A DNA stretch of 64,000 nt from Escherichia coli. GTDB taxonomy: Bacteria > Pseudomonadota > Gammaproteobacteria > Enterobacterales > Enterobacteriaceae. Shown here piece by piece: positions 8,101 through 11,100 of the stretch. Position numbers: made by a program. The first letter of the stretch is position 1; each line of letters opens with the position of its first letter. Where the stretch lies: assembly GCF_045037415.1 (NCBI RefSeq), contig NZ_CP173438.1, one strand, 5' to 3'.

Positions 8101-11100
8101 TTCTGAAAAAGGCAGCGCGGTACTTTGCAAGGGAGCCCGACTGAAGTACCGCTTCATCAACGATCACCGTGAAATCTGGTCGATCGTAACAATGTGTCGG
8201 GTTCTGAAGGTCGCCCGTGCGGGATTTTACGTCTGGCTTCATCGCCCTGTTTCTGCCGGAGAAAAGGATAATCAGCGGTTGCTGGAGCTCATCCGCGATG
8301 CTTATGCACTGAGCGGCGGAGTCTACGGTTATCGCAGGGTTCACGGCGATCTTCGTGAAATCGGTGAAGTATGCAGCAGAAACCGTGTTGCCAGAATCAT
8401 GAAGCGGAACAGGATACAGGCCGTACATGGCTATAAGGTCCCGCGTGGCGTCAGGGGAAGGCCGTCACTGATAGCTCCTAATCGCGTACAGAGGGAATTT
8501 ACGATGGTAAAACCCAACCAGGTGTGGGTGACTGATATTACCTACAGTGTGCCCGGAGTTCAGGGCGGGCATGGATGCTTAAATGAACCGCGAGTCTGTC
8601 TGGAATATTGAGCCGGTAACTCACGATGAGAAACCCAACAATCCCACCGGGTGTGACGGTGGAGAACCTGAGCGGCAGTGACCTGCGGCATGCCCGCAGG
8701 GTGATGTAACCCGCTGACAACGGGGATTGAGGCGAGATCACTAAGCCGAGATGATCCTCAAGGTTAAGTACTGAAAGGCTGAAGAACATGAACCCGTTAA
8801 TCCGCCTCTGTGGGTTGAAAACGTCACCACGGCCTACGTGATCTGACAGGCCGTGCAGGAGGAACTGGCAGTGATACGTAAGCACTGCCGGTCGAAGGTG
8901 TTTTGACATGTATGCGAAACACCGGGGCAGCAGCGTCTATCACGCTTGCGTTGCTGACTTCTGCCAACTTGCGGCAAGCAAGGATAAAGAGTGCGACGGG
9001 CAGCCTCCTCAGTATGCCTGAGTCCAGGCAGGTAAACCGGGGAAGGTCAGCGACGGATGTTAAGGGGGCATGGCTCCGATGACGCGCTGGCTGGCGGAGC
9101 TTCCGTAGTAGTCCGCGATGGGGAAAGCCCATTACATGGCGAAGGGAAGCAGTTTGAATGTGTTTGCGACGTGAATTAACTGACCTAACGAGGTGAAGAC
9201 CTTTGATAATCAGCGAAATGCAACGCAAGCTTGCCACATGGGCAGTCACCGATCCGTCCCTACGGATTCAACGGCTGCTGCGTCTGATAACACAACCAGA
9301 ATGGCTGGCTGAAGCGGCGCGGATCACGCTTTCATCAAAGGGGGCCCATACCCCCGGCGTTGATGGCGTGAACAAAACAATGCTACAGGCCAGACTGGCT
9401 GTTGAGCTGCAAATCCTCAGGGATGAATTACTCTCAGGCCACTACCAGCCCTTGCCCGCCAGACGGGTTTACATCCCTAAAAGCAACGGCAAACTGCGAC
9501 CACTGGGTATCCCCGCGTTGCGGGATCGTATTGTTCAGCGGGCCATGCTGATGGCGATGGAGCCGATATGGGAGAGTGATTTTCATACGCTCTCATATGG
9601 CTTCCGGCCTGAGCGCAGTGTCCACCACGCGATCCGCACGGTGAAATTACAGCTCACAGACTGTGGTGAAACCCGGGGACGCTGGGTGATTGAAGGCGAC
9701 CTGTCCAGTTACTTCGACACCGTACATCATCGACTGCTGATGAAGGCTGTACGCCGCAGGATCAGTGACGCACGTTTCATGACTCTGCTGTGGAAAACCA
9801 TCAAGGCGGGACATATCGATGTCGGTCTCTTTCGGGCGGCCAGTGAAGGTGTGCCACAGGGCGGTGTTATATCGCCGCTATTATCGAACATCATGCTGAA
9901 TGAGTTCGATCAATACCTGCATGAGCGCTACCTGAGCGGGAAAGCCAGAAAAGATCGGTGGTACTGGAATAACAGTATCCAACGGGGCCGAAGTACGGCG
10001 GTCAGAGAAAACTGGCAGTGGAAACCCGCGGTGGCGTACTGCCGCTATGCCGATGATTTTGTCCTCATCGTCAAAGGCACCAAAGCACAGGCGGAAGCCA
10101 TCAGGGAGGAGTGTCGGGGTGTGCTCGAAGGCAGTCTGAAACTCAGGCTGAACATGGATAAGACTAAAATCACCCATGTTAATGACGGCTTTATCTTTCT
10201 GGGGCACAGGATCATTCGCAAACGCAGTCGTTATGGCGAGATGCGAGTGGTTCAACGATCCCGCAGGAGAAAGCCAGAAACTTCGCCGCATCGCTGACAG
10301 CACTGTTATCAGGCAACTACAGTGAAAGCAAAGTCGATATGGCTGAACAACTCAACCGAAAACTGAAAGGCTGGGCCATGTTCTATCAGTTCGTTGATTT
10401 TAAGGCCAAAGTCTTCAGTTATATCGACCGTGTCGTGTTCTGGAAGCTGGCTCACTGGCTGGCCCGCAAATACCGTACAGGTATCGCTTCCCTGATGAGG
10501 TGGTGGTGTAAATCACCGAAACCGGGTCAGAGCAAAACGTGGGTTTTATTTGGTAAAACCAATCACGGCAAGCTCAGCGGCGAAATACTGTACCGGTTGG
10601 TGGGGCAAGGCAAGAAGCTGTTCCGCTGGCGGCTACCCGAAGGTAATCCCTATCTGAGGACGGAGACCAGAAACACGTATACATCGCGCTTTACAGAAGT
10701 GGCAATGGCGTTCGCCAGCATTTAAATGGAGAGCCGGATGCGCTGAAAGGTGCACGTCCGGTTCGGGGAGGAGAGGCAGGGAAATAGTCCGACTACGCCC
10801 TGCCTCTTACTCTACTCCGCACCTGGCAGGGTTGGCTGTATCTGGCGGTGGTTATCGATCTTTTTGCCCGTAATGTGGTGGGCTGGTCGATGAAACCAAC
10901 GCTGTCGCGCGAGCTGGCACTGGATGCGCTGCTGATGGCAGTCTGGCGGCGTAAGCCTGCAGAAAACGTCATAGTGCACAGCGATCAGGGCAGTCAGTAT
11001 GGCAGTGATGACTGGCAGCGGTTCTGCAGGGCCAACAATCTGGCGCCGAGTATGAGCCGTCGTGGCAACTGCTGGGATAATGCGGTGGCAGAATCGTTCT

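Follow-up and report, generated by a model that had tools for sequence, protein, structure and literature searches.

Background

Escherichia and Shigella carry the group II intron E.c.I4, a self-splicing retroelement also named S.f.I1 or 'IntA', which is multicopy on chromosomes and plasmids, inserts on the sense strand at one conserved position of IS3-family transposase genes, and encodes a protein with reverse transcriptase (RT) and X domains and without an endonuclease domain. E.c.I4 homes into "various IS3 elements" and provides the sole group II intron fragment in MG1655 (PMC3522654); it belongs to bacterial class A and lacks the En domain (PMC3552965). Copies with disrupted ORFs were described in E. 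coli SMS-3-5 and S. flexneri 2457T (PMC3522654). RmInt1 is likewise an endonuclease-less group II intron that homes into an insertion sequence (PMC1802570), but it is of class D, resides in Sinorhizobium meliloti, and targets ISRm2011-2. Published work already covers this intron, including its IS3 homing and the occasional disrupted copies.

Two further lines of published work bear on the locus considered here. In the ST131 strain EC958, the type IIS Eco31I system includes two methyltransferases, M2.EcoMI, producing GGT-m5C-TC, and M1.EcoMI, producing GAG-m6A-CC on the opposite strand, and 100% of the Eco31I sites are modified (PMC4659465). Errors at methylation motifs persist in native-DNA nanopore consensus sequences (PMC6591954, PMC11610573); those described at the Dcm motif CCWGG (PMC6591954) and at strain-specific motifs (PMC11610573) are linked to the modified base, differ between runs, and remain in the consensus. 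Here we analyze an E.c.I4 copy whose protein gene (ltrA) is split by a single missing base, and suggest, with a probability of about 0.8, that the frameshift is a base-calling or consensus artefact at a methylated Eco31I site, retained in a multicopy repeat.

An E.c.I4 copy in an ISEc24-family element

The window, that is, the whole 64-kb stretch of DNA that was analyzed, is of chromosomal origin and shows 100% identity to genomes of E. coli ST131. The intron and its exons are arranged as follows.

7860-8546, plus strand: 5' exon, comprising orfA and the N-terminal part of orfB of an ISEc24-family (IS3) transposase, ending in ATT ACC TAC A
8547-10815, plus strand: group II intron, 2269 nt in the window versus 2270 nt in intact copies
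8809-8814, plus strand: candidate EBS1, UGUGGG, with possible G-U wobble pairing to IBS1 variants
10729-10815, plus strand: ribozyme domains V and VI (Rfam RF00029 Intron_gpII, 64.9 bits with a gathering score of 40, E=1.2e-11)
10816-11264, plus strand: 3' exon, the C-terminal (integrase-core) part of the IS3 transposase orfB, delimited by ORFs and exon joining

The intron begins with GTGTG at 8547-8551, matching the conserved GUGYG of group II introns, and ends with CTCTAC at 10815, after domain VI; both ends are identical across five IS contexts, namely the window and four other insertion contexts. The intron lies on the sense strand of orfB, and joining the exons restores a continuous IS3 orfB frame, with VWVTDITY before the junction and IRTWQGWLYLAVVID after it, so that the spliced translation reads V W V T D I T Y I R T W Q G W L Y L A V V I D. 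In the identical reference the transposase is labeled by PGAP as 'IS3-like element ISEc24 family transposase'. In all five insertion contexts the intron follows the codons for W-x-D-x-T-Y of an IS3-family transposase gene. The G/U-rich candidate EBS1 could, as judged from base complementarity including G-U wobbles, pair with all five IBS1 variants observed (CCUACA, CUUACG, CCUAUA). An inverted-repeat search of the window did not reveal the ends of the insertion sequence, and no tRNA gene was found in the window.

The 502-aa protein of intact copies matches only RVT_1 and GIIM in Pfam, with no D/En (HNH) domain, and a 70-mer of the window agrees with the K-12 fragment ykfC in 70 of 71 bases. 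Because homing into IS3 elements, the absence of an endonuclease domain, and the ykfC match agree with the published description that sets the name, the element fits an ordinary, recently inserted E. coli intron E.c.I4. It departs from that description in its host, an ISEc24-family element outside the four insertion sequences named in the 2012 survey, and in the 1-nt lesion considered below, and otherwise in nothing substantial.

Of 499 E. coli genomes whose coverage of window positions 1-24000 is at least 80%, nine have the intron at the ISEc24 site and most lack it; the 16 lower-coverage genomes listed all align at 91% in two pieces, the pattern expected without the intron. From these alignments the insertion appears to be polymorphic among E. 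coli genomes. The strain SA186 (NZ_CP022730.1, 4614500-4618300) carries an intron at exactly the same ISEc24 position, differing at six positions (66, 341, 867, 1085, 1459, and 2125) from the copy in the window, E18, and isolate 131, which is identical to the common plasmid variant. The SA186 variant suggests that the site was entered twice by independent retrohoming, or that gene conversion took place. The polymorphism of the insertion and the SA186 variant are indirect evidence for splicing and retrohoming activity.

A single missing base splits the protein gene

The protein gene is divided between two reading frames.

9218-10297, plus strand: truncated intron-encoded protein, with 345 native residues (RT domains) followed by 14 out-of-frame residues and a stop
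10186-10725, plus strand: downstream frame with the X/maturase domain and C-terminal extension, open from 10186 and containing an ATG-started ORF at 10339-10725

Translation probably begins with the ATG at 9218, as in annotated intact homologs. The first ORF matches RVT_1 (residues 86-332; 1.4e-34 in the intact homolog) and the second matches the maturase domain GIIM (starting at residue 356; 1.3e-10 in the intact homolog), and the two domains fall in different frames of the window. The initial annotation had reported ORFs at 9203-10297 and 10339-10725 in different frames, which are indeed frames 2 and 1, and had proposed a single indel near 10240-10265 between the RT and maturase domains, to be located by alignment with intact homologs. 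Alignment with two intact copies places it inside that range, as one C missing between 10251 and 10252, after codon 345: the intact copies read GAGTGGTCTCAACG and the window reads GAGTGGTTCAACG, or GAGTGGT-TCAACG with the gap shown. The downstream frame is open upstream as had been described, but only to 10186 and not to about 10160.

The missing C, at position 1706 of the reference intron, is the single difference between the window intron and the two intact copies. The break falls at the junction of the RT and X domains, RVT_1 ending at residue 332 and GIIM starting at 356, and putting the C back gives the full 502-aa protein WP_001189123.1. In a plasmid megablast, 1420 records matched at 99% identity or more, the matched spans being 2262 nt for a query of 2261 nt. 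The frameshift is not a chance pattern of ORFs: the window departs by 1 nt from a sequence that thousands of records contain.

The ORF layout taken by itself would also agree with a natural arrangement, in which either programmed ribosomal frameshifting or separate RT and maturase proteins are used. A natural stop or a two-ORF layout in homologs was, however, ruled out, nearly all other copies examined having one continuous 1509-nt gene that differs by one base, and we give next to no credence to such a design.

Comparison with near-identical genomes

Over approximately 63.6 kb compared with the strain AH20E044, the window shows one indel only, the missing C, together with two substitutions and one IS1 difference. 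No homopolymer-length differences between the window and this reference were found. The copies at the same ISEc24 site in AH20E044, SA186, E18, and isolate 131 are all 2270 nt long with an intact ltrA.

Several minor differences and common features were observed in the same comparison. One substitution is A for C at 25321; the other, C for A at 55639, extends a run of C. The IS1 is an IS1B present in AH20E044 at window position ~26292-26300, whereas the window has no insertion there. The DUF3999 gene (13020-14415, minus strand) is frameshifted according to PGAP in the identical reference and appears as two overlapping ORFs in the window; this frameshift is common to the window and the reference, unlike the lesion in ltrA.

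The missing base lies in an Eco31I motif methylated in ST131

The intron contains three Eco31I sites.

9824-9829, plus strand: second site, GGTCTC at reference position 1281, undamaged in the window but damaged in other assemblies
10249-10253, plus strand: GGTTC, remnant of an Eco31I site GGTCTC that has lost the C between 10251 and 10252
10663-10668, minus strand: third site, which reads GAGACC on the plus strand (reference position 2120), undamaged in the window but damaged in other assemblies

The missing C is position 4 of GGTCTC. By analogy with EC958, the lost base would be the m5C position, adjoining the base pair that carries m6A. In the entire window there are nine GGTCTC/GAGACC sites, eight of them correct (at 509, 6643, 9824, 10663, 12675, 15738, 17517, and 30628), two of these in the same intron, plus the damaged one. 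No extended context separating damaged from undamaged GGTCTC sites was found, the only feature being a Dam site (GATC) 4 nt downstream of the site at position 1706.

The eight sites and the damaged one compare with about 31 expected from base composition alone.

We propose that native-DNA long reads would misread a GGTCTC site methylated on both strands (GGT-m5C-TC and GAG-m6A-CC), and that the error would survive in the intron, a multicopy repeat presumably beyond the reach of short-read polishing. For this, the assembly of the window would have been made from native-DNA long reads and its host would carry Eco31I, both of which we infer. The proposed error resembles the published nanopore errors in being tied to a modified base, whereas the motif differs, being a type IIS Eco31I site with m5C and m6A on adjacent base pairs. 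The papers on motif errors report substitution ambiguities, or errors not split by type (PMC6591954, PMC11610573), and single-base deletions at a methylated site are not documented in those that were found. Likewise, a literature search yielded no report linking sequencing errors to the GGTCTC motif of Eco31I.

Lesions of the same motif in other assemblies

In the eight damaged intron copies examined, every indel falls on the central T/C of a GGTCTC/GAGACC site, at position 1281, 1706, or 2120. The outcomes vary (GGTTC, GGTCC, GGTTTC, GGTTCTC, and GAACC), the lesion types at the three sites being delC, delT, C>T, +T, and delG, and only few assemblies are affected. Sites 1281 and 2120 are damaged only in the projects that also have the lesion at 1706, and in E13 and Esc20. 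One copy could be compared as an ortholog among four assemblies, the ISEc52 insertion at ~870 kb that adjoins the sat island.

E08: site 1281 delC; site 1706 delC; site 2120 intact
E14: site 1281 +T; site 1706 delC; site 2120 delG
E12: site 1281 C>T; site 1706 delC; site 2120 intact
GCA_052953235.1: site 1281 intact; site 1706 delT; site 2120 intact

Each of these assemblies has the variants 66G>A and 1085G>T. Across the ISEc52 copies, true variants are stable and the motif lesions erratic. At the same locus, five homopolymers are one base shorter in GCA_052953235.1 than in E08 (T7 versus T6, A7 versus A6), which is a long-read error signature.

A second error motif, RCCGGY (positions 66, 341, and 2049) together with GATC (position 1085), was considered and dropped, because 66G>A and 1085G>T behave like true SNPs, being constant in the four assemblies and recurring in other copies.

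In the E08 chromosome (NZ_CM143900.1, 894945-902014), papA is annotated as frameshifted and an IS3 transposase has an internal stop near the second intron copy; both may be further assembly errors.

The concentration of all indels of the eight damaged copies on Eco31I sites could alternatively reflect real mutation, if newly retrotransposed, unmethylated intron DNA were attacked by Eco31I in hosts with this restriction system, so that only copies without the sites survived, or if the doubly methylated dinucleotide were mutagenic. The lesions would then be scars of restriction, with inactivation of the intron-encoded protein as a by-product. The approximately 3-fold under-representation of GGTCTC in the window relative to the base-composition expectation, possibly a result of restriction avoidance, points in the same direction. 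However, Eco31I cleaves outside its site, 1 and 5 nt downstream, and escape mutations would be spread over its six positions and consist mostly of substitutions. Moreover, orthologous copies derived from one insertion event differ in their lesions, copies with all three sites intact reside in ST131-like chromosomes, and only a handful of sequencing projects show the lesions. We therefore regard real lesions of this origin as highly improbable.

The sequencing artefact has evidence against it as well. The other eight motif sites of the window are correct, there are no homopolymer differences, and the assembly is otherwise clean. Sites outside the intron are also correct in affected assemblies: p98215 agrees with its reference plasmid at the three GGTCTC sites beyond the intron, and the flanking GGTCTC sites of E08 and GCA_052953235.1 agree between the two. 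To accommodate these correct sites, one must further assume that polishing reached unique sequence but not the repeat.

Frequency of the deletion in public sequences

The 70-mer with the deleted C has no exact match among plasmid records; 1375 of the 1379 matching plasmid records carry the extra base, and the other four match at below 95%. Among 2693 complete-genome records of E. coli, the delC allele occurs in seven, which come from two projects. In metagenomes, the delC or delT form was found on none of the contigs, compared with 66 contigs containing the intact 33-mer, many of which bear names in the style of short-read assemblers.

At the protein level, the intact 502-aa product is present on at least 1000 contigs. 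Exact look-up of the truncated product retrieved one contig only for the 364-aa form (TTG start) and no match for the 359-aa form (ATG start). The 128-aa downstream ORF occurs on 288 contigs, a count that includes partial copies and contig ends and is therefore not specific to the lesion.

The main alternative is that the window contains a real, private, and recent 1-nt deletion truncating the intron protein after the RT domain. The lesion is present in the sequence as given, the window is otherwise of high quality, eight of its nine motif sites being correct, and a defective copy would not be without parallel, given the disrupted E.c.I4 ORFs of SMS-3-5 and 2457T (PMC3522654). Those copies resemble the window copy in being full-length introns with an interrupted protein gene, but they come from finished Sanger-era genomes, whereas the lesion in the window falls on a methylated base, is absent from the orthologs, and is probably not real.

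Complementation in trans of group II introns deleted for their ORF is established from work on targetrons and RmInt1. A copy with a real deletion would lack the X/thumb and C-terminal region and would be capable of neither efficient splicing nor autonomous mobility. It would need the protein of another E.c.I4 copy in trans, for instance from an IncF plasmid, and the interrupted ISEc24 transposase message could not be restored by splicing. On the other hand, a real deletion would have to fall exactly on the methylated C of one of only nine Eco31I sites in 64 kb, at a base where a few assemblies, which bear other error signatures, show erratic damage, while the four orthologous copies are intact and the allele is absent from the 1379 matching plasmid records and the 66 metagenome contigs. 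Decay of m5C yields C>T and not a deletion. We consider a real deletion unlikely.

A sequencing error is favored instead, because the missing base is the methylated C, the orthologous copies are intact, and the same motif is erratically damaged in a few assemblies. The initial annotation had left the choice between an inactivated intron protein and a sequencing error; the evidence favors the latter, with the former kept as a minority reading, and the ltrA frameshift in the window is most probably not a biological feature. Its biological weight is little either way. The practical value of the observation is that GGTCTC in ST131-type genomes appears to be a hot spot of consensus errors that survive in multicopy elements, and spurious "frameshifted ltrA" pseudogenes could inflate counts of inactive introns or add false alleles to typing schemes.

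Neighboring defense genes

The window also contains, between ychF and dhaR, an island with two adjoining sets of defense genes. A three-gene Lamassu system occupies 28268-31807 on the minus strand (PADLOC E-values from 1e-57 to 1e-176), two of its genes being labeled by PGAP as 'ABC-three component system'.

28268-30175, minus strand: LmuB (PADLOC)
30156-30683, minus strand: LmuC (PADLOC)
30668-31807, minus strand: LmuA (PADLOC)

Adjoining the Lamassu genes in the same island is a gene whose product fuses a retron reverse transcriptase with a Toprim nuclease (32042-33814, minus strand), assigned to type I-C of the Ec67 family (PADLOC E=5e-214).
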